DNA from: a virus | IMG/VR virus record: IMGVR_UViG_3300042802_000002 | Reading direction: 5' to 3' (one strand) | DNA: 45,653 nt | Shown: positions 2,655-45,653 of the stretch, piece by piece | Layout of the letters: each line of letters starts with the position of its first letter | How positions within the stretch are numbered: the first letter of the stretch is position 1 | Translations under genes and position numbers: made by a program | The notes under the pieces: generated by a model | Told to the model about the DNA's origin: nothing | Databases searched by the model: none | What the model saw: the letters and a program-made list of their open reading frames with translations, nothing else

Positions 2655-3038
2655 ACTACTTATGAAAAGAAATTGGACGGCCACAAAATCACTCAAGAAT
2701 ATAAGGACTTTATGAGTATAGCAAGAACAGAGGACCACCAAATTGATGTATTAACCACTTTAATGGATAAGGTAGAAGTTGAGGAAGGTTATAGGCTTTA
2801 CAGAGGATTTAAGCCTGAATTTCAGGAAAGCAATTGGCCAAAAGTTATGCTACAGCTTTTTGATTTTGAAAGAGTTTGGGAATGGACCACAGCCTACAGG
2901 GAAGTATTTATAAATAAAGATTTAAAAGCAAAGTTCACTTATATTGAAGGAGATTTAATTTTAAAAGTATTTGATAACAAAAAAGACTTTGAAAAAGATT
3001 TAAAAGAAGCAGGCGAATTTTACGCAAAAGGTTATTAG
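2652..3038 (+). CDS. Hypothetical protein
   Basis: 128-aa ORF with the conserved upstream AAGGAGAG element. Confidence 0.6.
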   Translation: MTTYEKKLDGHKITQEYKDFMSIARTEDHQIDVLTTLMDKVEVEEGYRLYRGFKPEFQESNWPKVMLQLFDFERVWEWTTAYREVFINKDLKAKFTYIEGDLILKVFDNKKDFEKDLKEAGEFYAKGY

Positions 3039-3046
3039 AATTTATC

Positions 3047-3080
3047 CAGCTTGTCAGGGTCCCACTACCTGGCAGGCTGC
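3047..3080 (+). terminator. Stem-loop (12-bp stem with two G-U pairs) followed by a T-rich tract; possible attenuator or terminator
   Basis: CAGCTTGTCAGG pairs with CCTGGCAGGCTG; T-rich sequence follows. Confidence 0.35.
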
Positions 3081-3125
3081 ATTAAGTTTTAATTTTTCTC
3101 AAATCAAATGTAAAGGGGTGAAAAA

Positions 3126-3293
3126 ATGCAAGAATACAGCCAAATGTTATTAGAAAAGTTGGTCCGACATATTAACGATTTAGGTAGGACGGGACAAGCT
3201 GCAGAATTAACAGAAGTGCTGCAGGTCCTGGAGGAAATACAGGTCCAGGCCGAAAGCATACAGCCTGAATATTACATTAATAAGGGGGCGTAA
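3126..3293 (+). CDS. Hypothetical small protein (55 aa)
   Basis: ORF below the 60-aa track cutoff; AAAGGGG upstream of the ATG; fills the gap before the next gene. Confidence 0.45.
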   Translation: MQEYSQMLLEKLVRHINDLGRTGQAAELTEVLQVLEEIQVQAESIQPEYYINKGA

Positions 3294-3295
3294 TT

Positions 3296-3490
3296 ATGAA
3301 TATGAAGCGGAATCCATTGTTTGACGAGTTTACAGGTCGCTGCAGGCCACGATATTTCGTAGTTGACAACAAGGGTTTGATATTAGCAAAAGCAGCCACG
3401 AAAGCAGAAGCGGAAAGAAAGCGAATGATCTGCGGAGAGGGTCAGGTTATGCGGCAGGATAATCTATTCCAGGAGGGGGGCAGAATATGA
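3296..3490 (+). CDS. Hypothetical protein
   Basis: 64-aa ORF; GGGGG 6 nt upstream of the ATG. Confidence 0.5.
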   Translation: MNMKRNPLFDEFTGRCRPRYFVVDNKGLILAKAATKAEAERKRMICGEGQVMRQDNLFQEGGRI

Positions 3491-3603
3491 GAAAACTCAA
3501 AGATCTGATTATATACTTGTTGGCTGCAGTTGTCGGTGGCGGGTTTTGGTACTATCTTATAGTAGTTTGGGCTGATTATGTGGCGACTTATCCAAATTAT
3601 TAA
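3486..3603 (+). CDS. Small hydrophobic (single transmembrane segment) protein, 38 aa
   Basis: ATG overlaps the upstream stop (ATGA); hydrophobic core LIIYLLAAVVGGGFWYYLIVVW. Confidence 0.3.
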
Positions 3604-3688
3604 GCAGGAGTTGAGCAGATAATCAAGAATTAATAATTAAGCGGCCAGTTAACCGCTGGCTGCACAAAATCAAAAGGAGGAAATTATA

Positions 3689-4282
3689 ATGACTAAGCGT
3701 GAAAAAACTATGATGGAGAAGGTCCTAGAGGAAGCAAAAGAGCAGGGGTTTGAATGGTATAAAGATAATGCAAGTCCATTATTAAGTATAGACGAATTAT
3801 TAATGCAGGCAGAGGAAGAAGAATGGCAAGAAAGCAACGACCCAGCAACAGCAGAAATGACTATAGCTGATTTTGATAAGGAAATAGGAAAAGCATATAT
3901 CTACAAGGTTGACGACAGAGGTTATCTAAGGGACAGAGTTGCAGCAATATGGAAGCCAAAAAAAGATATAATTATCAATGAATTGGAAGGTCGCAGAATT
4001 ATTTTGACTGCTGATGAATTAGAAGAAATAGACCCTGAGTTATTAGATTGGATTACATCAAGCAAATACTGGGGCAGAGGTTATGACTATACACCCGACC
4101 GCTCAGAAGCTATTGTTGAGTTAAGATTTGATGAAGAAGGCGTCAGATATTACGGAGATTTTGAAGGCAGTAGCACACAACCAGGAGAAGATCCTTCTCA
4201 AAATCAAGGTCCTTGGGGGGGAGATAGTTGGGAAGATTGGACCATTGAACAGCTAAAAAAATATTATGAATTAATAAGATAA
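3689..4282 (+). CDS. Acidic hypothetical protein (D/E-rich)
   Basis: 197-aa ORF; AAGGAGG upstream; strongly acidic composition. Confidence 0.6.
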   Translation: MTKREKTMMEKVLEEAKEQGFEWYKDNASPLLSIDELLMQAEEEEWQESNDPATAEMTIADFDKEIGKAYIYKVDDRGYLRDRVAAIWKPKKDIIINELEGRRIILTADELEEIDPELLDWITSSKYWGRGYDYTPDRSEAIVELRFDEEGVRYYGDFEGSSTQPGEDPSQNQGPWGGDSWEDWTIEQLKKYYELIR

Positions 4283-14434: not shown

Positions 14435-14638
14435 TTAAAAAATATCTTCATAGGTTACCTCTAGGCCTCTATCCTGTAAGATACTTAATATTTTATTTAT
14501 TTCACTTTGCTTGAAATCAGTTTTGCCATTAATTTTATTCGACATAGTTTTATAATCAATTCCTATCATTTCTGCTGTTTTTCCTTCTGTTAATCCTGCT
14601 TCTACTATTTTACCTTTTAATTTATAATTTGTTCCCAT
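14435..14638 (-). CDS. Cro/CI-type HTH regulator
   Basis: 67 aa; HTH-like TAEMIGIDYKTMSNKINGK. Confidence 0.6.
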   Translation of the reverse strand: MGTNYKLKGKIVEAGLTEGKTAEMIGIDYKTMSNKINGKTDFKQSEINKILSILQDRGLEVTYEDIF

Positions 14639-14700
14639 AAAAGTGTAATTTCACCTCCGATTAATATAATTAATTTCGTTTTTGTGAACTTGTTAAATAC

Positions 14701-14729
14701 ATTTTAATATACTTTTTGGTGGTTGTCAA
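14701..14729 (-). promoter_or_regulatory. Near-consensus sigma-A promoter on the minus strand (TTGACA, 17-bp spacer, TAAAAT)
   Basis: Read as the reverse complement of 14701..14729; sits upstream of the Cro-like gene. Confidence 0.45.
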
Positions 14730-14826
14730 GGGTTTTTTAGGAAAAAATATTACTTTTTGCAGAAAACAGTTAACTTTTTATACATATCTTCTTAAATCAC
14801 TCTAAATTTATGTTATTATTTTTGAA

Positions 14827-15126
14827 TTAATTGTCATTTTCCAATTCATTGTACTTTTTATCTATCTCTTTGAATGTTCTATTTAATATTTTACTAATGT
14901 TTTTTGGAGTTTCTTTTTTGCTGATTAATTCCATTAATAATTCTTCTTCCTCTGGTGTCCAATTAGTTTCCTTGCGATAATATTTACATAATTTCTTTTT
15001 CTTTGGAAAGTGAGCTGCATTATTGTACTTTTCGCAATAGTAACCATATTTGAAGTATTTGCATTGACTGCATAGTGCTTTACCTCGCTTATATCCTTTT
15101 TTAGTTTTTTCTATTCTTCCTTGCAT
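14827..15126 (-). CDS. Cys-rich protein with Myb/SANT-like C-terminal motif; first gene of the early block
   Basis: 99 aa; CSQCKYF ... C and WTPEEEELL ... ILNRT. Confidence 0.5.
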   Translation of the reverse strand: MQGRIEKTKKGYKRGKALCSQCKYFKYGYYCEKYNNAAHFPKKKKLCKYYRKETNWTPEEEELLMELISKKETPKNISKILNRTFKEIDKKYNELENDN

Positions 15127-15239
15127 TGATGTACCGGTATTCTTTTTCGCTATTTTCTACTCTCCTTTCATTAAAAGTGTAAAAGTTATCTAGTTATCCT
15201 TATTATAAAGAACTTTAATACTAATTAATCTTAGTTCAG

Positions 15240-15946
15240 GAAAAGTTGGCATAGAACACCCCTTGTGCTTAAGAAGTGTTCTATGTCTTTGTACTAATTA
15301 ACCTCAGCACGAGGTATCGACATAGTGCCATACGGCAAGTGCTCTGAGGGCTCCGCTTCTGCCTTAACACCCTATAGGAGTTTCACCTATTCACACCAAC
15401 ACCCTACCTTACGGTAACAGGAAAGGGGTGTCCGCTGTATCCCAGTGCCCACACTACAAGAGTGCTACACAATAGATTGCTGAAATTACAATCCCTGGAG
15501 CGGTTTTATTACGGATAATCTGAATTTAAACAGGACGACCAGCCTGCAGTTTTTTATAATAGTGTTATTCCTTTAACCACTAACCTTTTTGTTCTACAAA
15601 CACAAAAAGGACCTGCCAGTTCCCCGACAAGTCCTTAAATTTCTTACAGATTTTATGTAATTCACTTGCTAAGTTAGTACCTATTTGGTATAATTAACTT
15701 AACAAAAAATCTGTTACTTGTGCGAGAAGTAGCAGTCAACCCGCTAGCATTTGTAGTGCTGAGCGGATTTTCTTTTTCTATATGTAATTTTTAATTTTCT
15801 AAATTTTAAGGGGCAAAGATACCAGCTTCACCCCACCGAAAATGTATTCGGTACAAATATATTATTATGTTAAAATTATTATACTACTTTTAAATCTTAA
15901 TTGCAAATGGAAAGCCCCACATTTTTTAAGTGTAGGGCTTTTTTTA
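15240..15946 (+). ncRNA. Candidate large structured noncoding RNA (family unknown; GOLLD/ROOL-like is one hypothesis) in a GC-enriched noncoding island
   Basis: No credible ORF on either strand; local G+C clearly higher than the flanks; several strong hairpins and long-range complementary segments; ends at a plus-strand intrinsic terminator. Strand and boundaries are uncertain. Confidence 0.3.
15913..15946 (+). terminator. Intrinsic terminator (9-bp stem, T7 run on the plus strand; weaker on the minus strand)
   Basis: AGCCCCACA ... TGTAGGGCT followed by TTTTTTT; lies immediately past the stop of the last late gene (15950). Confidence 0.55.
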
Positions 15947-15949
15947 TAT

Positions 15950-16318
15950 CTATTTAACTTGTTCAGGCTTTTTAAGTTCTGTACCCAATCCGACCATAAT
16001 TTCGCCGATAATAGGCTCATACTGTGTGCCAGGTATGGTTTCTTTCATAGCGTCAGCAGCCTTTTTGTAAACTACATCTTCTAAAGTTGTTTCCTCCATC
16101 ACGGTTTTCAAAAAAACTAAAACAGCTTCATTCATGAAATCTTCATCTCCTTTCGTAAATACCCTTATTATTAATTGAGTTAGCCACATAGGCAATTCCT
16201 CACGATCTAAACTATCTGCATAATCTTTGAGTATTCTGTTTGCTTTCGCTATATTTTCTACAACTATTTGCTGCTCTGGTGTCAAATTGCTTAAATCTCT
16301 GCTGATAGATAGGCTCAT
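15950..16318 (-). CDS. Hypothetical protein (last gene of the late operon)
   Basis: 122-aa ORF. Confidence 0.55.
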   Translation of the reverse strand: MSLSISRDLSNLTPEQQIVVENIAKANRILKDYADSLDREELPMWLTQLIIRVFTKGDEDFMNEAVLVFLKTVMEETTLEDVVYKKAADAMKETIPGTQYEPIIGEIMVGLGTELKKPEQVK

Positions 16319-16497
16319 TTCTTTGCTCCTAACTTTTTTACGGCATCACCACCTATTATTACTACCGCTAAAGTAGTAAATGTATTCTCATCAAATATGC
16401 CTGTTATTTTGCCTATAAAAACGATTAGCAAAAACACTAAGTCTTGCTGAAAATCATTATCCATAAATAAATCTAACCAATCCTTAACTAACTTCAT
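16315..16497 (-). CDS. Holin-like small membrane protein
   Basis: 60 aa; two hydrophobic segments and a charged C-terminus (KKLGAKK); overlaps the endolysin stop. Confidence 0.45.
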   Translation of the reverse strand: MKLVKDWLDLFMDNDFQQDLVFLLIVFIGKITGIFDENTFTTLAVVIIGGDAVKKLGAKK

Positions 16498-16865
16498 CTT
16501 CTATTATCCCACTCTGCTGGCCTGTGCCGTACATCTAAGTGGATAAAAGTATTATATAGTCCAATACCCCTAAAACCTATTTGCTTTGCTATACGCTTGA
16601 TTTCTTCAATCTGTAGAGGAATTGTGTGTAAACTAATATCTACTGCTTTTCCATAAAGATGTTGGCTATTTTTAGCACCATTAACCTGCTTATTTCTTTC
16701 AGGACAGCGATAAGCTGAATTGATAATTAAAGGTACTTCTAATCTATCTCTTAACTGCTGCAGCTTATCTAATAATTCTTCATCTATTCTAGTATGCCTG
16801 TGATCTGGGTGAGTACATTCAAACTCTGACATCTTAAAATTTTTGCTTATCTGAATATCATTCAT
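16494..16865 (-). CDS. Endolysin, peptidase M15 (D-Ala-D-Ala carboxypeptidase-like) family
   Basis: 123 aa; SAYRCPERN ... HLYGKAVD ... IHLDVRH matches the M15 zinc-ligand pattern. Confidence 0.75.
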   Translation of the reverse strand: MNDIQISKNFKMSEFECTHPDHRHTRIDEELLDKLQQLRDRLEVPLIINSAYRCPERNKQVNGAKNSQHLYGKAVDISLHTIPLQIEEIKRIAKQIGFRGIGLYNTFIHLDVRHRPAEWDNRR

Positions 16866-17245: not shown

Positions 17246-20200
17246 CTAATCACTAAGCGGCTCTTTGCCATTATATCTGCGAGCCAAATTAATTTTTTGT
17301 CTTTCTAGTTTATCTACTGTTTCTTTTTTACCCTGGCTTTGTGCGTACTTAATTTGCCTGTTGATATTAGCGAAGTGCCTAATCAGCTTATTTAGTTGTG
17401 ATAAATTCCTTTTAGCTTCCATTATTTCTTTTCGCGAGTACCTTAAATCTTCGCCATATCTCCTTGAATTATTATAATTAGCGACCATTTGAGTATATTT
17501 TTTCTGATCCTGGTACACTTTTGTTACATCTTCATAATATCCAGACTCTGAAATACTTATTAGCCGCTTAACTGCATTAAAAGGTATTATATTACTTAGT
17601 GCTTCTAAAGTGCCGTCAGCATAAGCAATAGAAGGATTAACTATTGCACTACCTCCTAAGTTAAAGAACTCATATAATCCAAATTCTTTAAGTTTCTGGC
17701 CGACATTACCTGTCAGCATAGCTTCCTCTGATATTACATTTCTACCCCGCCAGGTATCGTAAATATTCTCTCCAGATGTTAACCTTTGAACATCAGCTGC
17801 GGCCTGCAATAATGGGTTAAGATTACTTGTATTCCACGGTAATTCAGTCCAGACTGTACCTGCAACATCTCCCCATTCTCCACGGGCTGCATTATAGACA
17901 GCAGATGTAACAGCCTGTCCGATAAAGTCCTGTGGAAGTTGTATAGTTATTGCTTTGCCGTTTGCTTTCCATACAGGAACTACTAAATAAGTTTCTTTTT
18001 TATATTCGCTGACGCCTTCCATTGTTTCTGCTATCTTTTTAGCAAATTCACTATTTGGGAATAATTCGTCAGCTTCTTCTGCACCAAGCTGCAGTAATTT
18101 AGGAAGCAAACTAAATAACGCAAGTTTAAATAAGAATGTGCCTGGATTTTGCCTAAAACTTTCAGCTGCAGCAGTCCAACCTGATTTCCTAATTGTTGAG
18201 AAGATAAATAAGTTATTAGTAATTGAGTGTAAAGCACCTCTTTGCTTGAAGTCAGGAGTACCGACTCTGGTCCTTACTCTGTGTGCTAAATCGCCTTCAG
18301 ATAGATTAGTTCTCTTGCTTAACATTCTGTATCCAGCTATTTGACCTGCCATTTCTGCGACCTGACCGAAGTTGTCTAATCCTTCCCAAGCACTACGGAC
18401 TTTATCGGGTATTAATTTTTGTAATCTGCTGTGTTCTTCCCCGCTTTGTTCGTTATAATCAAAGATTTCAGTTAATAACTGTTGAGTATCATCTTCCATA
18501 TAACTGTCAGAAGGTCTATACATTCTGTCTATGGTTAACATTCTATTTCTTCTCATATATGAAATATCTTCTGATCTCTTATTGTGCCTTACATTATTCC
18601 AGGCTTCTGAAAAAGCCTTCTTGTACTCGTGGGCTAATGCTGGAATATCTTTTATACCAATTTCAGGGTTATTCATAACTGTAGCAAAGAAATCTCGTGG
18701 AATGTTAAAAATCATCCAACGTGGGTTGTGAGATACAATTATCGACTTCATACCCTGGACTATTGATAAAATAGTATTTGTAGCTGCATTAGCCTTGTGT
18801 GGAGTATATTCGTATAGGTCAGCTATATCTTTTTCAACTAAATATCCGTCTAATTTGCCGTTAACTGTAAAAGTTATTAATCCTTCATCAGCGTCTGTAG
18901 AGTCTTTAGGTATTATCTTACCGTATATTTCTTTTGTTGGTGCTTGTCTTATTGACTCTGGGGCTATTTTCTTTAATGCTTTTACTGCAGCCACCTTAGA
19001 CTCGTTAATACGGATAGAACTGATTATACTCATATCTTTAAGCATTGTGGCAACAAGTGGATTACTTATTTTCCTACCTGTACCATATTGCCGCATAATT
19101 ATATCGCCAGTACCTTCGCCAAATTCAGTATTAATATAATCTACTACCTCAAAAGTTACATACTCTTTATTATTTTTAACTTTTTCCATAGCTGCTTCTG
19201 TAAACATATTAGATTTTTCCATTATAGGTATAATTCTTTCCTGTCTTAATTGATAATATTTTTCTGCAGCGTTAACTATTTTTTGATATTTTTCTTCTCC
19301 GTATTTATCTAATAAAGCCTGCTGCATTTCTTCTGCTCTAACTGTATTAACAAAAAGTGGGTTAGCATATTTTCTTCTGTCGCCCAAAACTCTTTTATTA
19401 AATAAGAAAGAGTTAAAATCTAAGAAGTCTATATCATAATTTGATAATCCTTCTATTATCTGGCCTATATTGTAGAGGTAATCTTCTACCTCAGAGGACA
19501 TATAAGCTATTTCCTCCATTTTATTTCTTGCTTCCCTGGATAACTTTCCTTTTTCTCCAGTATCGCTGTATTCTCCCCTAAAATATTTGTAGAGGGCTGA
19601 ATTTTTATCAATAAAACTTTCTATTAGCCAATCAAAACCACTTTTTACTCCCCGTTCTCTACGCTGTATCTTCTTTTTAGTCTGTTCTACACCGTCAACC
19701 ATACCTTCTTGTAAATTGTCAAAGGTTTTGTTTATCATTTCAGATCTATTTTCCATTAAGTGCCTTACAGTATTATATGATTTTTTTACTGCTGGCTTTT
19801 CAGATATACTTTTTTGGATAAACTGACTAAATAATGGTGCTTCCTGCTGCAGCATTTCAGGATCCAAAAAGAATACACTCATAGCGTCAGCGTAAAGTTC
19901 CTCTGGGCTAAAGCGGTATTGTCTGTATTTTTTATTGCTTGTATCAAACGGTTTCCATTTTTGAGATAACCTCTGCAGCTCTTTTTTTAGTCTGGGACCT
20001 AACTTTTTACTATCTCTGATAGCGTCTAAGGTTTCGTCTTTTTCTCCTTTGTAAATAAGACTCATATTATCCATTAATTCGCCTTCATCTAACTCACTTC
20101 TAGGAATAAAATCTATTAAGTGGCCTAATTCGTGCGACATTGTCTGTGCTGCAAACTCTGGATCAACTTCTAATACTCTGACCTCTACATAGTTTTTAGT

Positions 20201-23200
20201 AAATTTAGTTTTAAATTCTACTTCGCCAATTTCAGGATCATTTTCTATTCTTGTTCTAATTTCCTGTATTCTTCTGTCATATTGCTTATTTGGTATCTTT
20301 TCCTGGTGGATTGTAGGTCCGATAAATATATCAGGATTAAGGCCTATACTGCCGTCTTTAGGCATATAATAACCCAATGTACCTGTATTACTTAACTTTT
20401 TGATAATACCAGGATATTTGCCCTCTGATAAGGCTAGAATTATATCTAAGAGTTCAGGCATTTCTATTTTTTTATCGTTAAGAGTAAACTTTGCTCTAGC
20501 ATACTTATTCTTCTGGCTAAATTCTACAGCGTTTCTGCTCATTTTAACATTCTTGCCGTTAATATTTATATTTTTAGGCTCTTTACCGAATAAAGTTTTG
20601 TTAGTTTCTATACTTTTTTTAACATTATTATTTTCGTTGCCTACTTCATATCTTATTATTTTGCCCCAGCGTGGTGATATATTACCTTCTTTTATTAAAT
20701 CGTTAACCTTAGATTTTATTGTTTCTACTGGAGTTTTATCAAAACTTTCTTTTAAGTTTTTAGCAGCTTCTTTAATTGTTCTGCCGACTGACATTTTAGC
20801 ACCGCTTTTACCTTCTGTTATAATCCAATAGTTTGGAGGTGTAGTTGTCTTTTTGTTTTTGATTTTACCTACCTGATCTTTAATCCTATATCTAAAAAGG
20901 TCCATATCTTCTGTGCCAGGTATAGATATTGGTTTAGCTTTTAAAACCTGCACAAATTCGCCTTCGTTATCGAATATATAATAGTTGTTAGGCTCTGCTA
21001 ACTGACTTGTATCAATATCAGGCTTACCAGTTTTAACAGTTTCTCCTTTAAATACCCCTGATTGATCTGTTCCTCCTAAAGCCATAATAATATCAGAAAT
21101 AACAAGCGGTCCTCTAGGTGTAACTACCTTGCCTTTTTCTCTTTCACTATATATTGGAGGTTTATTTTCAATTTCAATATATCCTCCAGGAGTATTAATT
21201 TTAATAGTTTGATTAAAGTTTTTAGACTTTTCGATTAAGTCTTTAATCATATCTTTTCTCTCAGTATAACTTCCCATAATATCCCGTGTTTTGCTTCTTT
21301 TAACTATTTTTAGATTATCAAATAATTCATCTGAATTTATATCGCCATTTATATGCTGCCATAATCTATATTCTAAAGTATCTTGCCTAGTTGGACTTGA
21401 TTTACCTTCGATTTCTTCCATTCTTTCCTGTGCTTTTTCTTGTGCAAATTCTTCTACTTGTTCAGATTGATATTTTTCTAATCTTTTTTCTATTTCATCA
21501 ATAGCTTTATTATATTCTCGACCTATATCATCTACAGACGCTTGCGAATTAGGTAAATCAAATTCATCTTTTGAAATTTCTAATCCAGCTTCCCTAGCTT
21601 TATTAAATATTTCTTCAAATTCCGTGGTTTGTTTATCATATAAATCTTGTTTAAATTGCTGATTTTCTGTAGTTTCTACATTATTAAATCTTTCTTTATA
21701 GAAGTTATAAGTAGGCTCATTTAACATTTCTACTTCTCTAGCTTTATCTAAAATTTGATTAACTTTATCTTTAGATATATTACCTTCTTCAATATCAATA
21801 GTAATTCTATCTAAATCACCTTTAACTAAATCATAGATAGCTGTTATAATTTCTCGATCAGCTATTTCCTGTCCCCATTCAGTTAGTGCAGCACTACCAG
21901 TTTTCCTATTTTCATTTTCTGTTTTTCTTTTTTGCTTATCTTCTCTTTTTATTGCATTACTAATTGCTGTTTCTCTTTTTCTACTAATAATTTTTTGTCT
22001 TTCTTCTATTTCAGCTTCTTGTCTTGCTTTTTCAGCCGCTTTATTAATATCTTTAGTAGTAACAACTTTCCCTTTAGTTTCAGAAGTCTTTTTAACATAG
22101 TTATATGCTTTGCGGCCAGCTTCTTTAATCTGTTTTTTATCTTTTGGAGTAAGTTCTATTTCATTTTCTTGCTGTTCTCCTACAACTTCACCTTCTTGTT
22201 TTTTTATTTTTCTACGAATAGATTTTTTAGCTTTTTCCTGCCATTCTACCATAGCTTTTCTTTTGTTTTGTGCCGCTTTGGCTCTTTTATCGTTCTGACG
22301 AGTATTGAAATTAGCAGGCCCAGCTATCATAGGAGAACTTACTCTGCTTTGAGAAGATAAATAATCATTTAATTTTTTAATATAATTTTCTTTATATTTC
22401 TGTAATTCATCAGTTAATACTTTTCTTTGTGTTTCATTTCCGACAATCTCATTTAATTCATTATATAAATCTTTTATATGGTTAATATATGATCTTTTAA
22501 GTAAATCGGCCCTGTCTTTCGGGGTGTGGCTAGTCCCTCTGAAAGCTCTAATTAACAATTCATTATCTAAATCATTTGGAGAAATTTCTATTGGTATATC
22601 AGAAGTATCTATGTCCTCCGCTTTAACCTTTTTAGTAGGCTCTGAAAAAGCTCTCTTTTCTAAATATTCATATCCTGCTTTTTCACCAAATTTATTAGCC
22701 ACTTTATTAGCTGCTCTAATTAAAGCATTAAAACTTTCTTTTTCTCTCCAAAATTCTATTTCTTTTTTACTAAAACCTTCATCTTGATATTTTTTATCTA
22801 AAAAGTATTTTTCATATTTATTTAATTCATATTCTTGTTGTCCTTCATCTTCAACAATACCTTCCTGTTGCTGTTGGCCCTCTTGGATAGGTTGGCCTTC
22901 AATAGCTGCTCTAGTTTTTCTGGCTTCATTGATAGCGTCATCTATCCTCTGATAAGTCCAGGTGTTACCGTTCGTATCTATAACATCAAATTTAGCACCA
23001 TTATGAACTACATAAGATTGTAATTCTTCTGGAATGCCAGGAGTATTCTCTTGCGAAGCCATTTCTCTAAAATTATCTATTTGCTCGTTGCTCTGTTGTA
23101 TATATTGGCCTGTTTCTTCTACTGTTGTATCTGGCTGTGTATTTAGACCTTCATCAGTTTGATTTTCATTTTCTATAGTATTATCCACATTATTTGGCTG

Positions 23201-25069
23201 CTCAATTGGAGTTTGAGCGACATCTCCCTGCTGCTGCGGTTGTGGTGTATAATTTTGTCTAGCTTCTACTAACTGCTTTCTTAAATCTGATAAAACATTT
23301 AGCGATTTTTGTCGAACGGTATCTACATCATCTGCAGCTGTAGGCATATCATATTGACTTAAATCTACCTGGCCGCCATACTGATTAATTCTTCCTACTA
23401 TATCATTAATCATTTTCTGACGGCTGCTAAGTAAATTCTGTGCTGCCTGTGGTTGATTTTCAGCTATTTCTGCCTGCTGCACCTGTTCTCTTGTTGCTGT
23501 TTCAAATGGAGTAACAGTTGATAGATCATATCCGTTGTTAGCAAGTACGGTAAACAATTCTTCCATACTTTCAGCAGTCATAGTACCCTGTCGCTGGTTG
23601 CCCTGGAATACATCAACTAAAATATTATCATTCATATTTCTTACAATAGCATAATTATTGTTATCTATATTAACTGTAAAAGTGTTTAAATCTTGCTGGT
23701 TATTGATTAAGTTTTCTAAAATTCTTTGTTTAGCAACTGCTGCAGCTTTTTGTTCAGCCATTGTTCCCTGAAAACCTTGGAAAGCATTTTGGGTAGCTTC
23801 TCCACTTTGTTGTCTTTGCCTTTCCATTTCTTCTTGTTGCTGCATTTCAGTCTTTTTTTGGTTAAGCTGTCTGCTAATTTTTTCTATCCTTCTTTGTTCT
23901 TTTTGATTTCTTTCATACCGTGCTTCTCTTTTTAAATCTTCCATCATTCTTTCCGCTTTGATTATTTGATTAATGTCGTATCTTAAATTTTGAGCATTGT
24001 TTTGTCTATAATCTCCTACGGAAGAAAGAATAGCACCTGTAGCAATAGCACCTAATCCAGCGTTAGCAACTAAAGAAGTGAATTCGTCTGCATTAAATTG
24101 TTTTCCTTTAATTATTACATCAGAAATATAGTTTGTTGCCTCTGTACCCATTTCCTCGCCAGCTTCTGATAATCCACCTTTAGCACCTGATTTAAGCCAG
24201 TTTGCAAGACCCCACTCTATACCTTTTTGCATTTGGTCGCCAGCTATTTTATTAGTTCTCACAATATCATCTATCATAGGGAGTGTTACTAAACTTTCCC
24301 AAATCACTTCGGAAGTACCTTTTACACCTGCTGATAGTAACTCTTGTTGGTCTGATAGTTCAGGACCACCTTCTGTTTCTCTATATTCGCCACCAGCAGC
24401 TGATAATCCAATAACTGCTTTGGGTAGGGCTTGCGATAGTACATTAGAAGTACCTAACATACTACCTGCTGTGCTTGTAGCACCTAAACCCTGTGCTGCT
24501 GTACCTGCAAAACCGCCCATCATAGCAAGTAATATATTAGGAGCAGTCTGTGCTGTTACGCTAACTAGCTGCTTGCCAAAGTCCATAAATCTGCCTTCTT
24601 TTAGACTTTCTATCATATTATTACCCAACTGCTTACTTTCCATACTCTTGCTATCAAAAATGGTTTCTGCAGCTTGATTAGAAGCGTCAGAATAGCTGTC
24701 TAACCCTTCTTCTATAAGATTAAACCCTGGTATCTTAAAAGCGTCGCTGCTGTCAACTTTCATTTGTTCATTACCTGTTAATTCTGCAAAAGCATTTTGA
24801 GGTTGTGCTGCAGCTGAATAAACGAATTTACCCAGCCATCTAGCACCATTTGCTATATTACCAAATAATCTAGCTGATCCTCCTGCGAAATCTTTGGCAG
24901 TATCAGTAAATATGTTGCCGTCATTATACTGCGGCTGAGGTTGATTAACTGGCTGGCTGATATTTTGTTCTGTATTCATCTGCATATCAGGAAAAGGTAT
25001 TGCTTTAACATTTATATTGTTTTTTGGTTTTTCTTCTTCCATACCTGGAAAAGGTATTGCTTTAGCCAT
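17246..25069 (-). CDS. Giant virion-associated protein (2,607 aa) with HExxH motif; candidate internal/ejection or tail protein
   Basis: Uninterrupted 7,824-nt ORF; duplicated N-terminal KAIPFP(G/D)M motif; Gly/Ala-rich hydrophobic stretches; long Q/E/K-rich regions; HELGH encoded at 20120..20134. Confidence 0.8.
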   Translation of the reverse strand: MAKAIPFPGMEEEKPKNNINVKAIPFPDMQMNTEQNISQPVNQPQPQYNDGNIFTDTAKDFAGGSARLFGNIANGARWLGKFVYSAAAQPQNAFAELTGNEQMKVDSSDAFKIPGFNLIEEGLDSYSDASNQAAETIFDSKSMESKQLGNNMIESLKEGRFMDFGKQLVSVTAQTAPNILLAMMGGFAGTAAQGLGATSTAGSMLGTSNVLSQALPKAVIGLSAAGGEYRETEGGPELSDQQELLSAGVKGTSEVIWESLVTLPMIDDIVRTNKIAGDQMQKGIEWGLANWLKSGAKGGLSEAGEEMGTEATNYISDVIIKGKQFNADEFTSLVANAGLGAIATGAILSSVGDYRQNNAQNLRYDINQIIKAERMMEDLKREARYERNQKEQRRIEKISRQLNQKKTEMQQQEEMERQRQQSGEATQNAFQGFQGTMAEQKAAAVAKQRILENLINNQQDLNTFTVNIDNNNYAIVRNMNDNILVDVFQGNQRQGTMTAESMEELFTVLANNGYDLSTVTPFETATREQVQQAEIAENQPQAAQNLLSSRQKMINDIVGRINQYGGQVDLSQYDMPTAADDVDTVRQKSLNVLSDLRKQLVEARQNYTPQPQQQGDVAQTPIEQPNNVDNTIENENQTDEGLNTQPDTTVEETGQYIQQSNEQIDNFREMASQENTPGIPEELQSYVVHNGAKFDVIDTNGNTWTYQRIDDAINEARKTRAAIEGQPIQEGQQQQEGIVEDEGQQEYELNKYEKYFLDKKYQDEGFSKKEIEFWREKESFNALIRAANKVANKFGEKAGYEYLEKRAFSEPTKKVKAEDIDTSDIPIEISPNDLDNELLIRAFRGTSHTPKDRADLLKRSYINHIKDLYNELNEIVGNETQRKVLTDELQKYKENYIKKLNDYLSSQSRVSSPMIAGPANFNTRQNDKRAKAAQNKRKAMVEWQEKAKKSIRRKIKKQEGEVVGEQQENEIELTPKDKKQIKEAGRKAYNYVKKTSETKGKVVTTKDINKAAEKARQEAEIEERQKIISRKRETAISNAIKREDKQKRKTENENRKTGSAALTEWGQEIADREIITAIYDLVKGDLDRITIDIEEGNISKDKVNQILDKAREVEMLNEPTYNFYKERFNNVETTENQQFKQDLYDKQTTEFEEIFNKAREAGLEISKDEFDLPNSQASVDDIGREYNKAIDEIEKRLEKYQSEQVEEFAQEKAQERMEEIEGKSSPTRQDTLEYRLWQHINGDINSDELFDNLKIVKRSKTRDIMGSYTERKDMIKDLIEKSKNFNQTIKINTPGGYIEIENKPPIYSEREKGKVVTPRGPLVISDIIMALGGTDQSGVFKGETVKTGKPDIDTSQLAEPNNYYIFDNEGEFVQVLKAKPISIPGTEDMDLFRYRIKDQVGKIKNKKTTTPPNYWIITEGKSGAKMSVGRTIKEAAKNLKESFDKTPVETIKSKVNDLIKEGNISPRWGKIIRYEVGNENNNVKKSIETNKTLFGKEPKNININGKNVKMSRNAVEFSQKNKYARAKFTLNDKKIEMPELLDIILALSEGKYPGIIKKLSNTGTLGYYMPKDGSIGLNPDIFIGPTIHQEKIPNKQYDRRIQEIRTRIENDPEIGEVEFKTKFTKNYVEVRVLEVDPEFAAQTMSHELGHLIDFIPRSELDEGELMDNMSLIYKGEKDETLDAIRDSKKLGPRLKKELQRLSQKWKPFDTSNKKYRQYRFSPEELYADAMSVFFLDPEMLQQEAPLFSQFIQKSISEKPAVKKSYNTVRHLMENRSEMINKTFDNLQEGMVDGVEQTKKKIQRRERGVKSGFDWLIESFIDKNSALYKYFRGEYSDTGEKGKLSREARNKMEEIAYMSSEVEDYLYNIGQIIEGLSNYDIDFLDFNSFLFNKRVLGDRRKYANPLFVNTVRAEEMQQALLDKYGEEKYQKIVNAAEKYYQLRQERIIPIMEKSNMFTEAAMEKVKNNKEYVTFEVVDYINTEFGEGTGDIIMRQYGTGRKISNPLVATMLKDMSIISSIRINESKVAAVKALKKIAPESIRQAPTKEIYGKIIPKDSTDADEGLITFTVNGKLDGYLVEKDIADLYEYTPHKANAATNTILSIVQGMKSIIVSHNPRWMIFNIPRDFFATVMNNPEIGIKDIPALAHEYKKAFSEAWNNVRHNKRSEDISYMRRNRMLTIDRMYRPSDSYMEDDTQQLLTEIFDYNEQSGEEHSRLQKLIPDKVRSAWEGLDNFGQVAEMAGQIAGYRMLSKRTNLSEGDLAHRVRTRVGTPDFKQRGALHSITNNLFIFSTIRKSGWTAAAESFRQNPGTFLFKLALFSLLPKLLQLGAEEADELFPNSEFAKKIAETMEGVSEYKKETYLVVPVWKANGKAITIQLPQDFIGQAVTSAVYNAARGEWGDVAGTVWTELPWNTSNLNPLLQAAADVQRLTSGENIYDTWRGRNVISEEAMLTGNVGQKLKEFGLYEFFNLGGSAIVNPSIAYADGTLEALSNIIPFNAVKRLISISESGYYEDVTKVYQDQKKYTQMVANYNNSRRYGEDLRYSRKEIMEAKRNLSQLNKLIRHFANINRQIKYAQSQGKKETVDKLERQKINLARRYNGKEPLSD

Positions 25070-37605: not shown

Positions 37606-39536
37606 TATCTCACCTGTCCTGACGCTTGTTGACTAGGGTTTCTTTCAGTCTGTGGCCTTCTTCCTCTTGCTCTACCTGTACTTGCATTATCAGCCTGCTG
37701 GGCAGCTGTTGGTCTATTACCTCCCTGCTCTGCAGCAGCCTGTTGTTGCTGTTGCATTTGCTGTATAGCCATTTCCTGGTCTGACAACAAGAATTTTTCT
37801 GCATTTTCTATATCAAAAGCCTTCAACCATTCCTGGAATAATTCTTTGTAATTAACGAATGGTACTCCAGACTGTAATAACATTTGAAGCATATGAGTTA
37901 ATTGTTCTCGTCTTACATCTTTATTAGCTGCAGGATCAACATTAGTTCCTGCTGGCCTGTAATCAAATTCACCTATTAAATCACCTGTATCAATAGCACG
38001 CCAAGCGTTACCCTGTTCAAACGGAATATTAATTAACCTTTCGCTATCAATAAATTGCTGGTTATTCATATCCATTAAGTGTGATAAACGCTTAATTCCC
38101 AATTCCTCGAATATCTTTTGCTTAACTTCAAATCTCATTCCAGCGTTAGATGTCTGCTTCATAGTTTCTGTTGCTGTTTGGTCGCCTGTGCTTTCAGCAC
38201 CCTGCATAACAGGTGGTGTCGCAAGTGCATTTTCAGCTAAACCTTTCAACATACCCTGCTGATTAAAAGCAGAAGAAGCTACATCTGTCATATCAAATTC
38301 TTGTACATCTTCTGGGCGATCAACATAGATAATTCCGTGTGGTCTTGATACCAATTCGGACTCGTCAATGTCTGCCCCTCGTCTAACTTTCCACATCTTA
38401 TTTAAGATAAAGTTGATATTATCTGTACGCTGATTATGGAGAGTATTTTCTTCTTCCTGAATATCAGAAATGACCTGTACTGCACTCATTCCGTAAAATT
38501 CAGAAGGTAATCTGTCATATTTGCCTACAACAAAAGGTTTTTTCCTGTGTCGCCAGTAAGGAGAAGGTCCGTCATAAATAGTTTTCTGCCTGTTGACTGT
38601 GATACAATGCCTGTTATCTTCCCAATAGTGCAATAATTCTAACTCTGAATTTTTGTTAGACTTATAATCGTTATTGCTGAAAATATCAACATCACCAGAA
38701 GAAAAACCTATCTCTGACATTCTTTTATCTCGGCCGTGTTCTAAGTTGGCTGCACCTTGTAATTCCTGTAATTCTTTAAGATCTCTTAGATAAATTCTTC
38801 CTTCATCTAAATAATCTAAAAATTCTAATCGACTTTTTAACTGATCTAAAGTAACAAATTCTCTTTGGAATACTCCTCGGCAATCGTCTAAGTTAGTACC
38901 TTTAGGGTCAGGCCAAAAATCAAAATAATCTATATTAGTTATCTCGTTATCGTCCCAAACAGCTTCTCTGGTCTGCCTGGTCTGATATATGTGCCTGCCT
39001 GTATATTGAGGTACTCCAAATTGATTTCTGATGATCTCGGGTACTGGTACTTTCTTCTTTACAAAATCTTCCTCGTATCGCCACCCAACGCCCATAATTC
39101 CTAAAGGAAAGATTAATAGAGAAGTTATATAATCATAGTATTTAGAAACTATGTTGTTTTTATCCAACTGCTCATTAACTAAAGAAGCAGCCACCTTTGC
39201 TTTATCTTCTGCCATATTCATAGGAAATCTGTCAAAATTTGTCGGCTTAGGCAGAAAATCTATATAAGGTGGAGATTTAAATAATCCCATTACATACCTT
39301 GCCCGAATAGTATCTACAATCTGATAGGCTCTAGGTATATGGATATTAGAGCGGGTATTTTCTTCCTCGTCCTTTTCCCTAAATTTTTCTTTATAGCCAA
39401 CAACCTGCTTATACCATCTAACCGCCATATCGTCCCATTGACTACGATAACTGTCAAAATGATTAAATAGCGATATTTGTTCCTGGAATAAGTCGCTTGC
39501 TTCCTGCTGTAATGTAGTTGGTCGGTTAAAAATCAT
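37605..39536 (-). CDS. Portal protein (candidate)
   Basis: 643 aa; sits between the terminase and scaffold/capsid genes; called by synteny and size. Confidence 0.6.
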   Translation of the reverse strand: MIFNRPTTLQQEASDLFQEQISLFNHFDSYRSQWDDMAVRWYKQVVGYKEKFREKDEEENTRSNIHIPRAYQIVDTIRARYVMGLFKSPPYIDFLPKPTNFDRFPMNMAEDKAKVAASLVNEQLDKNNIVSKYYDYITSLLIFPLGIMGVGWRYEEDFVKKKVPVPEIIRNQFGVPQYTGRHIYQTRQTREAVWDDNEITNIDYFDFWPDPKGTNLDDCRGVFQREFVTLDQLKSRLEFLDYLDEGRIYLRDLKELQELQGAANLEHGRDKRMSEIGFSSGDVDIFSNNDYKSNKNSELELLHYWEDNRHCITVNRQKTIYDGPSPYWRHRKKPFVVGKYDRLPSEFYGMSAVQVISDIQEEENTLHNQRTDNINFILNKMWKVRRGADIDESELVSRPHGIIYVDRPEDVQEFDMTDVASSAFNQQGMLKGLAENALATPPVMQGAESTGDQTATETMKQTSNAGMRFEVKQKIFEELGIKRLSHLMDMNNQQFIDSERLINIPFEQGNAWRAIDTGDLIGEFDYRPAGTNVDPAANKDVRREQLTHMLQMLLQSGVPFVNYKELFQEWLKAFDIENAEKFLLSDQEMAIQQMQQQQQAAAEQGGNRPTAAQQADNASTGRARGRRPQTERNPSQQASGQVR

Positions 39537-39540
39537 TTAA

Positions 39541-39768
39541 TCACCTTCTCGGCTGCTGTGGTTGTTGTGGTGGTGCTTGTGGTCCTGCCCCTGCTTGTTC
39601 TACCTGCTGCAATCTAGTAATCAGCTGCATAGCTAACATTACTAATTGCTGTTGATCCATTTGAGATAATCTTTGCTGCAACTGCTGCATTTGTCCTCCG
39701 TTTTGAGGACCTGCCGCCATTCCTGGACCTCCAGGTTGTTGTGGTGGTTGTCCCATACCCATTGGCAT
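39541..39768 (-). CDS. Q/P/G-rich low-complexity small protein
   Basis: 75-aa ORF immediately upstream of the portal gene. Confidence 0.4.
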   Translation of the reverse strand: MPMGMGQPPQQPGGPGMAAGPQNGGQMQQLQQRLSQMDQQQLVMLAMQLITRLQQVEQAGAGPQAPPQQPQQPRR

Positions 39769-39848
39769 AATAACCCTCCTTAAAACAATACTGTATAAAT
39801 AGAAAAAGCCCCCACCACCAGTTATTACCTGATAGTAGGGGCTGCTTG

Positions 39849-40022
39849 AGCCGCTTGATTATTTTTCTTTATGTTCCAAAAATGAGTAAACTTCTCCTCC
39901 TAAACGCTGAAAGTATATGTTCATACTGCTACATCTAGGACATTTTTTCTTTATGACACCTTCAAAATCGGCTTCTCCCAATACTTTATTACAATTTTTA
40001 CATCTTAATTCTTCTATTGTCT
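39849..40022 (-). CDS. Small zinc-ribbon protein (GTG start, 57 aa)
   Basis: Below the track cutoff; CKNC ... CPRC; GGTGG upstream of the GTG. Confidence 0.35.
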
Positions 40023-40262
40023 TCCACCTCACTTTAAGAATACCACCAAATTAAATAATTTGCAAACTGCAAACTTTAGTTTACAACCTTTTATGCAGGG
40101 CTTCAACTAGCCTTACACCTTCGGCAGCTGTCAAATCAAAGATAACTGAACACCACATAGCCATATATCCGTCATCTTCGGGAGTCTTACAGCATTTAGC
40201 ATATTCAACAAGTATTTTGGCTGTATCTCTGTCATAATCATCATACATAATAGACCTTTCTT

Positions 40263-40520
40263 TTAATCAAGTTTTTTTTCAATTTTTTCAACAAAACCGT
40301 TAAATCTGTAATTTCTGAAACAATCTATTATATCAAACAATTCTTCGAAGCCAATATCCATTTTCTTATCTAGCATTTCGTCATTCATTTCTGTATATTC
40401 ACAATAATGGTCATACATTCTTGCAAAGTTATCTAAATAATCTTCCATTTCTAGTTCCATTTTCCTCAATTTTCTTTGCTCTTTTTTAACAAATTCTTTT
40501 TTGCTTAAAATTGGGATCAA
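40263..40520 (-). CDS. Hypothetical acidic protein
   Basis: 85-aa ORF. Confidence 0.5.
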   Translation of the reverse strand: MIPILSKKEFVKKEQRKLRKMELEMEDYLDNFARMYDHYCEYTEMNDEMLDKKMDIGFEELFDIIDCFRNYRFNGFVEKIEKKLD

Positions 40521-43744: not shown

Positions 43745-43833
43745 TGGTCCGTAGGGCAGGACTCGAACCTGCAAGTGCCTCCCACACAGTCGGATTTACA
43801 GTCCGCCGCCATCACCATTTCGGCCACCTACGG
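43745..43833 (-). tRNA. tRNA-Tyr (anticodon GTA), type II with long variable arm
   Basis: Manual cloverleaf: 7-bp acceptor stem (CCGTAGG/CCTACGG), anticodon loop CTGTAAA, T-arm GCAGG-TTCGAGT-CCTGC, discriminator A and encoded CCA. Confidence 0.8.
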
Positions 43834-45142: not shown

Positions 45143-45415
45143 TTATTCAACAACTTCCCAATCGTTTGATAGCATATCAGGTTGTGAAGCTAACCACCCT
45201 GGCTGCCATTTCTCGCCAGCGGTCCACATAACTATATACCCCTGACATTCTAAATCTTTCCCTTCTGGTAAAAATTTTCTGCTTCTACCATTAACCATGC
45301 TTTCTTCAATAGTTACAGGTGGCATATAGCACAGCCACATATTTTTACCATTCCAACCTTTTCGTGCAATTTTTTTGCCTTTTTTTAATTCTTCTAATGC
45401 TTTACCAAAATTCAT
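45143..45415 (-). CDS. DUF2829-like protein (Tad2-like anti-defence candidate)
   Basis: Start set at the internal ATG preceded by GGAGGG; MNFGKALEELKKGKKIARKGWNGK ... WLASQPDMLSNDWEVV matches the DUF2829 pattern as I remember it. Confidence 0.55.
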   Translation of the reverse strand: MNFGKALEELKKGKKIARKGWNGKNMWLCYMPPVTIEESMVNGRSRKFLPEGKDLECQGYIVMWTAGEKWQPGWLASQPDMLSNDWEVVE

Positions 45416-45425
45416 ATTGCCCTCC

Positions 45426-45632
45426 TTAAAACTGCTTTGAAAGTGTAAAACTAACATTATTCGGAGTCTTACAATCCTGCTTTATTCTTAAATGGCCTAA
45501 AGGAAGTCTACCATCAACACCAACTATACATATATCGTCCTCTACATAGGAATAGTGCAGCTTTTTTACTACAAAATTAGGAGATTGGAGTAAATGCTCG
45601 ACCACTATCCTGTCAAAGCTAGAAATATCCAT
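45426..45632 (-). CDS. Hypothetical protein spanning the terminal repeat
   Basis: 68-aa ORF; its 5' part lies inside 45527..45653 and is therefore duplicated at 1..106. Confidence 0.45.
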   Translation of the reverse strand: MDISSFDRIVVEHLLQSPNFVVKKLHYSYVEDDICIVGVDGRLPLGHLRIKQDCKTPNNVSFTLSKQF

Positions 45633-45653
45633 AGTGCCGTCCTCTGATACTGT
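45527..45653. repeat. Terminal direct repeat, right copy (identical to 1..127)
   Basis: Direct sequence identity with the first 127 bases. Confidence 0.9.

Follow-up and report, generated by a model that had tools for sequence, protein, structure and literature searches.

Countertranscript or convergent-promoter modules are well known from the pIP501/pT181 attenuation systems, the prgQ/prgX region of pCF10 and the RNA I/RNA II pair of ColE1, and the non-coding RNAs of the GOLLD and ROOL classes measure several hundred nucleotides (nt) or more. The latter have been described as large and ornate phage-associated RNAs (Nature 2025, PMC12286853), and they are said to lie frequently next to tRNA genes (PMC5737381). 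A third RNA, the EGFOA motif (Rfam RF02955), was reported by Weinberg et al. in 2017 (PMC5737381); it is described as a putative small RNA located in unusually long gene-free regions and forms RNA-only trimers or dimers in cryo-EM (bioRxiv 10.64898/2026.07.01.735769). The locus considered here is a gap at positions 15127-15949 of a viral DNA of 45,653 nt (IMG/VR record IMGVR_UViG_3300042802_000002; this whole stretch is hereafter called the window, and positions follow its plus-strand numbering). The gap is probably a minus-strand non-coding RNA locus, and the element W within it a stand-alone structured RNA cassette that is proposed to serve as the functional counterpart of EGFOA.

For the comparative analysis, approximately 80 relative loci (referred to by L-numbers) were collected from IMG/VR, JGI, ENA and Logan assemblies via the flanking 122-amino-acid (aa), 143-aa and DUF739 proteins and one DNA pattern. 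A distant relative (L009), whose homologue of the 122-aa protein is 69% identical, keeps the late terminator (T_late), the promoter P1, the convergent promoter P_as, the antisense hairpin and the leader terminator T1 of the window (Table 1); after T1, it carries a GC-rich block of ~330 nt that is unrelated to W and contains a true EGFOA RNA. At this syntenic position, the EGFOA model gives L009 a score of 69.7 bits and L017 one of 59.3 bits, the gathering score being 37.7. The EGFOA-type block with the score of 59.3 bits is present in L017, L019, L020, L042, L072, L074, L078 and L081, behind a leader that matches that of the window almost base for base, and in the L017-type loci homology with the window resumes directly past the 99-aa gene. 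Every further locus that spans the slot (20/20) has either W or EGFOA. The two kinds of block share, at their start, the hairpin H5 and a -10-like box, right after which the cassette begins, and, near their end, a homologous long hairpin (CAUAG...CUAUG), directly past which comes the 3' strand of a helix that closes the structure over a long range. As a self-contained cassette, W is exchanged with the EGFOA block in sibling phages.

W and EGFOA have in common the slot behind the same frame of promoter, antisense RNA and terminator, and the location in a long gene-free gap of a mobile element, but they possess no detectable sequence similarity. The conserved CCGUCCUAG and GUAAAGCUAGACCUGGG elements of EGFOA, which are of the pseudoknot type (5' single strand versus hairpin loop), are absent from W upon inspection, and the EGFOA model finds no match in the window at the gathering threshold, nor at E ≤ 10 in 14600-16400 and 15235-15585. 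While EGFOA occurs across Bacillota and Actinomycetota, W is known only from one phage clade. With GOLLD and ROOL, W shares the general character of structured, GC-enriched phage or prophage non-coding RNAs with several helices and GNRA-type loops; W is, however, roughly half their size or less, and no tRNA gene stands beside it. The surroundings of W resemble the countertranscript modules in their face-to-face promoters, in a short terminated antisense RNA overlapping the leader, and in a terminator placed before the cargo, all of which are predicted here. In contrast to these modules, the cargo of the window is a structured RNA cassette and not a replication or conjugation gene, there is no sequence or Rfam relationship, and an antisense-dependent alternative terminator fold was not found at T1 in minimum-energy folds: the T1 hairpin is part of the minimum-energy fold with or without the antisense target sequestered, and by eye only a 6-base-pair (bp) alternative pairing with its 5' arm could be seen.

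The EGFOA-containing block of the slot is considerably longer (~330 nt; 6670-7075 in L009 and 404-800 in L017) than the 108-nt Rfam model, and the helices that it has in addition, some of them 5' and some long-range, covary when the L009 and L017 variants are compared. Downstream of the block, L009, L060 and L061 carry parA, a small gene and two genes for cI-like repressors. Elsewhere, true EGFOA RNAs are present in cultured Bacillota: in Ureibacillus xyleni (L043, 1640-2640), within a ~1-kilobase (kb) non-coding stretch that adjoins genes for a MazF toxin and for a segregation actin of the Alp7A-like kind, and in Halalkalibacter akibai (L054, 6313-6438), next to a Tn7-like TnsD; it is also found in Solirubrobacterales and Patulibacter, although Pfam searches with the open reading frames (ORFs) around these actinobacterial loci yielded nothing useful. 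Since its loci are distributed over Bacillota and Actinomycetota, EGFOA can be viewed as a mobile-element RNA that crosses phyla, and its neighbours in Ureibacillus, Halalkalibacter and the parA-bearing L009 provide hints of a link to partition or mobile-element modules.

W exists in ~10-12 distinct sequences that are 86-96% identical and composed of a few recombining haplotype blocks. Its predicted helices lie between 15546 and 15247 and comprise 81 base pairs, and over the 10 variants used for folding, 779 of the 780 pair cells (99.9%) are standard. Thirteen of the 81 pairs vary, six by two-sided changes and seven by one-sided changes compatible with G-U pairing; when the partners were slid by 1-3 columns as a control, 36-45% of the cells paired and two-sided changes dropped to zero. 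When transferred to the plus strand, these helices pair only to 87.2%, because 99 G-U cells turn into A-C, and this loss fixes the minus strand as the one that is read and disfavors a purely DNA-level reading. Three of the two-sided changes fall in long-range helices. In P2, the helix that corresponds to the complementarity between GTCCGCT and AGCGG singled out in a first-pass annotation of this DNA, the arms are ~65 nt apart and the states C-G/U-A, U-A/C-G and U-G/C-G occur; one pair of P5 alternates between G-C and C-G, and one pair of P9, whose arms are ~145 nt apart, runs through G-C, G-U and A-U. Variable columns are found at 50 of the 150 unpaired but only at 20 of the 162 paired positions, and the hairpin loops switch between GUAU, GUAA and GAAA and between GUAA, GCAA and GUUA, variants of the GNRA-type tetraloop.

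W is 86-96% identical between phages whose flanking genes share 66-68% of their nucleotides and ~53% of their protein residues, a degree of conservation to which mosaic exchange contributes; in close relatives, the non-coding region is conserved to 94-96% while the adjacent gene is replaced. Judged from these few and closely related sequences, the gap appears to hold a structured non-coding RNA whose pairs are kept by compensatory change on one strand.

With 823 nt (~797 nt when it is taken to end at the following gene's ancestral start codon), the gap is the longest stretch without credible genes in this genome, just as the first-pass annotation had stated. It contains TAA, TAG and TGA stops in all six frames, and the sole ORF of at least 30 aa that lies wholly within it is one of 30 aa starting with GTG. 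Hidden coding by means of a reassigned stop codon was considered and ruled out, as all three kinds of stop are present in each frame. The other two long gaps (3038-3689 and 39536-40263) are occupied by small genes that possess good ribosome-binding sites, and the GC-rich stretches at 3149-3590 and 39449-39877, which were considered as further RNAs, turned out to be such small genes as well. The GC enrichment ascribed to the whole gap (36.1% versus 34.6% for the genome) applies only to 15240-15545, which at 46.1% belongs to the highest 96 when 45,347 windows of 306 nt are ranked, while 15546-15949 has 31%. The folding energy of the entire gap is lower than that of shuffled controls (z-scores of -4.1 for the plus and -4.7 for the minus strand), a signal that comes from the terminators and long hairpins; the hairpins that the annotation had named are indeed there (15811-15854, Table 1). 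Its proposal of one large RNA of ~820 nt was correct in that a structured non-coding RNA is present, but this RNA measures ~300 nt and is encoded on the minus strand. The gap is a mosaic of separate elements, with the same minus-strand reading direction as the flanking genes, and no single 820-nt RNA. Likewise, the intrinsic terminator noted on the plus strand is a good one, but it is bidirectional and does not form the 3' end of W. The assignment of the gap to the junction of late and early genes is borne out by endolysin and holin genes upstream and by Cro-like, Mu Gam, organizer and loader genes downstream.

Table 1. Features of the non-coding gap and its surroundings in the window (plus-strand numbering)
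Feature	Position	Strand	Description
M15 endolysin gene	16494-16865	minus	end of late block
Holin-like gene	next to endolysin gene	minus	end of late block
122-aa gene	15950-16318	minus	last late gene
T_late	15911..15941	both	bidirectional intrinsic terminator; hairpin and T-tract
P1	15878..15906	minus	sigma-70-type promoter; TTGCAA, 17-nt spacer, TATAAT; faces leader and W
Leader	P1 to T1	minus	predicted, ~270 nt
Two adjacent hairpins	15811..15854	minus	5' part of leader; -19.4 kcal/mol, z -4.05
Antisense small RNA	15701..15778	plus	predicted, ~75 nt; start placed by the position of P_as
Long imperfect hairpin	15714-15646	minus	in leader
P_as	15666..15694	plus	convergent promoter; TTGCTA, 17-nt spacer, TGgTATAAT, extended -10
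T1	15597..15636 (hairpin 15636-15607)	minus	terminator at leader end; 13-bp stem, -20.1 kcal/mol, z -5.78
H5	15556..15581	minus	hairpin AGUG...CACU abutting -10-like box TATTAT (15561-15556)
W RNA	15245..15550	minus	structured, ~300 nt, 16 helices; RNAalifold on 10 variants
W, 5' part	three-way junction P2-P6 15503-15432	minus	short hairpin; three-way junction; P7/P8 hairpin
W, helix P2	15503-15499 with 15436-15432	minus	
W, 3' domain	P9 15398-15394 with 15251-15247	minus	closed by long-range P9; holds P10-P15 and H3
R1	15292..15303	minus	direct repeat (GGTTAATTAGTA) inside W, just upstream of H3
W, hairpin H3	15283-15252	minus	12-13 bp
R2	15219..15230	minus	direct repeat (GATTAATTAGTA) downstream of W
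Ribosome-binding site and ancestral start codon	15151..15169	minus	GAAAGGAGAG at 15169-15160; start codon at 15153-15151
Myb-like ORF	14827-15126	minus	99 aa; early side of gap
DUF739 Cro-like gene	promoter 14729-14701	minus	behind strong TTGACA/TAAAAT promoter
tRNA-Tyr gene	43745-43833		sole tRNA in the window, 28 kb from gap

The regulatory frame in front of W starts with T_late, 9 nt past the stop codon of the last late gene. Its hairpin has a calculated energy of -15.8 kcal/mol and is followed by U7 on the plus strand; on the minus strand, it reaches -15.2 kcal/mol and is followed by UUUCCAUUU. T_late is kept in all relatives, with a two-sided change of one stem pair in L011 (GCCC/GGGC to GUCC/GGAC); this predicted terminator would end the late operon on the minus strand and block read-through on the plus strand into the late genes. 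P1 and P_as, which face each other at a distance of ~185 bp, each match 10 of the 12 consensus positions, P_as having in addition the TG upstream of its -10 box. The hexamers of P1 and their 17-nt spacing are conserved in all relatives, while the spacer sequence varies (TTGCAT...TATAAT in L009; also L055, L011 and L003), and the P_as hexamers are likewise invariant with spacers that differ in L001, L009 and L055. The RNA predicted to start from P_as is wholly complementary to the minus-strand leader and ends with a hairpin (15741-15766; -13.9 kcal/mol) and a U-tract (AUUUUCUUUUUC); the stem of this hairpin shows a two-sided change in L009 (AGCA/UGCU to GACA/UGUC), where a U-run follows it as well. 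The hairpins at 15811-15854 are a lineage-specific insertion in whose place L009 and L055 have A-rich sequence, whereas T1, followed by UUUUUGUGUUUG, hardly varies among the relatives, even in the distant L009. Because the promoter hexamers are kept while their spacers vary, and because the terminator stems covary, we take this predicted module of promoters, antisense RNA and terminators to be real. The first-pass annotation had also considered the gap to be the early promoter/operator region; two conserved convergent promoters and promoter-like boxes are indeed part of it, but they share the gap with an RNA.

H5 is common to the W and EGFOA cassettes, and its stem covaries between the cassette types (GUGUA/UACAC in L017, GUGCA/UGCAC in L009, GUGG/CCAC in L055); it may function as a hairpin in the RNA or else as a palindromic operator. 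The abutting -10-like box reads TATAAT in the EGFOA-type loci, L055 and L058, and TTAAAT in L002 and L056. On the far side of W, the repeat R2 occupies the would-be -35 position of a conserved TATAAT box (15207-15202), and its L058 version, TTGACT, comes near the -35 consensus. R1 and R2 are the only two copies of this repeat in the window when at most one mismatch is allowed. The repeats (GRTTAATTAGTA) flank H3 and change in a concerted manner between lineages, as TTAATTAG twice, TTAAGATG together with TTAAGCTG, or TTGACTAA twice, and the EGFOA-type blocks hold an analogous repeat pair that likewise changes together. R1 and R2 could be operators or alternative RNA pairing partners; by inspection, neither an R1-R2 nor an R1-leader pairing is conserved across lineages.

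The ribosome-binding site and the ancestral start codon of the Myb-like gene mark the real 3' limit of the non-coding region. This start codon is ATA in the window and ATG in L015 and L028, where the gene caller finds a 108-aa product; the 99-aa ORF listed for the window starts 27 nt further in, at an ATG without a ribosome-binding site of its own. The Myb-like gene may be poorly translated in the genome represented by the window, or may start at AUA.

Searches of the whole window with the Rfam 15 covariance models at their gathering thresholds detected nothing but the tRNA-Tyr, and searches at E ≤ 10 of 14600-16400 and of the 351-nt block 15235-15585 returned only noise (E > 0.3). Since Rfam 15 gives no match, W stands outside GOLLD, ROOL, EGFOA and the other curated families in terms of model membership. 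Comparison of the region and of the EGFOA-type block by blastn with the INPHARED phages and the PLSDB plasmids gave no match. Exact and degenerate W patterns recovered only the same 3-5 contigs from IMG/VR, a W pattern found nothing in the GTDB representative genomes, and a covariance model of the 5' domain of W detected only the window's own copy in 192 kb of sequence that comprised the window together with EGFOA-type loci of phages and EGFOA loci of bacteria.

In the scenario that we favour, host-type promoters would drive the expression of W right where the early region begins. Past the late terminator, P1 would direct the synthesis of a ~270-nt leader that stops at T1, while P_as would produce an antisense RNA of ~75 nt against this leader. 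W would most likely be made by read-through of T1, and the weak -10-like box just upstream of it might be a second source. The convergent pair of P1 and P_as, together with T1, would in this way set the dosage of W. By analogy with EGFOA, W may act as a folded RNA itself, via its tertiary structure or possibly via self-assembly of the kind reported for EGFOA, and would do the same job for the phage. More tentatively, and with a probability somewhat below even, W might be an undescribed class of folded RNA that is functionally interchangeable with EGFOA, both being alternative cargoes of a dedicated, antisense/terminator-gated expression slot at the start of the early region of a lineage of phages and phage-plasmids.

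Several observations weigh against the view of W as a stand-alone counterpart of EGFOA. T1 is strong and, in minimum-energy folds, showed no alternative fold that would depend on the antisense RNA, hence the route of W past T1 is problematic; for the -10-like box upstream of W, inspection of the sequence revealed no -35 element, and the box is degenerate in some variants. The ends of the W, leader and antisense transcripts are predictions from the DNA sequence. The independent covariation events are few, because the variants of W are few, closely related and built of recombining blocks, and the structure of W is favoured over the slid controls because it was derived from the very same sequences. 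The GC block that corresponds to W has, when taken alone, an unremarkable stability (z-score of -0.96), so that thermodynamics alone says little about it. Searches of IMG/VR, the GTDB representative genomes, INPHARED and PLSDB did not detect W in anything but this phage clade. Finally, as W is always accompanied by an ORF ~80 nt downstream with a conserved ribosome-binding region, a cis-acting role is conceivable.

Such a role would make W a 5' leader (a riboswitch, a sensor, or an element that modifies RNA polymerase) for the control of the early gene or genes directly downstream. W is positioned upstream of the first early ORF, all W loci keep the ~80-nt spacer and the ribosome-binding site as far as the ATG, and RNAalifold predicts a helix between UUCUUU and the GAAAGG of the ribosome-binding site. 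RNAs of early phage transcripts that act on RNA polymerase do exist, the structured put RNA of phage HK022 being an example. However, the downstream ORF is swapped between the Myb-like gene (99/108 aa) and a gene for an unrelated 143-aa protein, with the junction exactly at the ATG and the same untranslated region in front of it. Furthermore, L017, L074 and L078 lack an ORF between the EGFOA block that fills this slot and the promoter that comes next, the Cro-like gene being the next gene in L017 and L074. W is also closed by its own helix P9, the TATAAT box and R2 are interposed between W and the ribosome-binding site, and no riboswitch or leader family of Rfam matches. We therefore consider a leader function of W unlikely.

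Distinctly less probable still is the control of replication or maintenance of a phage-plasmid by a ColE1-like countertranscript, in which the W and EGFOA blocks would be replicon-specific. The geometry is reminiscent of RNA II/RNA I, with convergent promoters, a short antisense RNA and a structured RNA that extends ~600 nt downstream, and the position of the EGFOA block directly upstream of parA and the cI-like repressor genes, as well as its Alp7A-like neighbour in Ureibacillus, would suit such a function. Yet the strong T1 stands between the antisense target and W, and in the window genome as well as in L017 and L074 there are no par genes at the slot, in spite of the presence of W or EGFOA. 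Genes for an SPP1-type replication system (the Phg_2220_C organizer, the G39P loader and SSB) are located elsewhere, and origins usually lie within the organizer gene. The region displays neither iterons nor the organization of an AT-rich unwinding element, and a match to the Rfam family PK-repZ is mere noise (10.7 bits, E 7). The replication origin put forward in the first-pass annotation as an alternative is disfavored, as no iteron family is present and the organizer and loader genes are 4-5 kb away.

Conservation of the region might also reflect sites that act at the level of DNA, such as lineage-specific operators or a packaging or recombination site, a notion to which we accord only a slight probability as an explanation for the whole. 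H5 and H3 are local palindromes beside -10-like boxes, R1 and R2 change in concert with R2 at a -35 position, and three independent contigs (L003, L004, L030) end within 3 nt of each other at ~15434-15437. This position coincides with the junction of the two domains of W and with a recombination point between haplotype blocks, which makes an assembly break, for which such junctions are a typical cause, the likelier reason for the contig ends; the alternative of a genome end or an att site at 15434 is disfavored, as the assembly of the window closes into a circle and other contigs run across this position. There is no DNA-level rationale for helices with arms 65-145 nt apart that covary via G-U intermediates in a strand-specific manner, and the gene for the small terminase, with the likely pac region, is far off (768-1226). 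For H5, H3 and the R1/R2 pair, a DNA-level function may nevertheless hold alongside the RNA explanation.

That W belongs to the GOLLD or ROOL class, as the first-pass annotation had suggested, can practically be dismissed, since only the context (W stems from a phage, its surroundings are free of ORFs over a long stretch, and the genome has a tRNA gene at another place) speaks for it, whereas W is too short at ~300 nt and neither model matches even at E ≤ 10 with permissive filters.

The window represents a circularly closed assembly of ~45.5 kb, as its two ends (1-127 and 45527-45653) consist of the same 127 bp. Nearly all genes are on the minus strand; the early side of the gap carries, in addition to the genes listed in Table 1, those for Mu Gam, the replisome organizer, the loader, RusA and SSB. 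Neither an integrase nor par genes were found in the window genome, while L009-type relatives carry parA and the cI-like repressor genes in the slot, and the best match of the large terminase among isolates is 34% identical. The endolysin module is itself subject to exchange, with an M15 peptidase in the window and a glycoside hydrolase (Phage_lysozyme, PF00959) in L009, L024 and L055; the holin-like and 122-aa genes keep their position although the adjoining endolysin differs among close relatives. Just upstream of the lysis genes lies a single ORF of 2607 aa (17246-25069, minus strand), whose homologues in relatives have 1604-2612 aa and a ddrB-ParB domain (PF18763). A 104-aa protein (45143-45457, minus strand) matches the Tad2-like domain (Thoeris anti-defence 2; PF11195, E 1e-24). 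On the plus strand, an 83-nt direct repeat with 86% identity (2036-2118 and 2573-2655) occurs in two copies, each with a hairpin and a ribosome-binding site, one directly upstream of a RadC-like gene (2115) and one in front of the gene that follows it (2652).

Few large structured RNAs of phages have been listed so far, and W is a candidate for a further family of this kind. For EGFOA, an orphan RNA whose fold is conserved across phyla, the locus provides a defined genetic setting, namely a slot in the early region with a promoter, an antisense RNA and a terminator. Since unrelated folds are swapped naturally in otherwise near-identical genomes, the function of W and EGFOA is directly amenable to experimental testing. 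The locus suggests that phages exchange RNA folds as modules; if W and EGFOA are truly interchangeable, whole RNA folds would be swapped in the manner of accessory or counter-defence genes, and W might self-assemble as EGFOA does.

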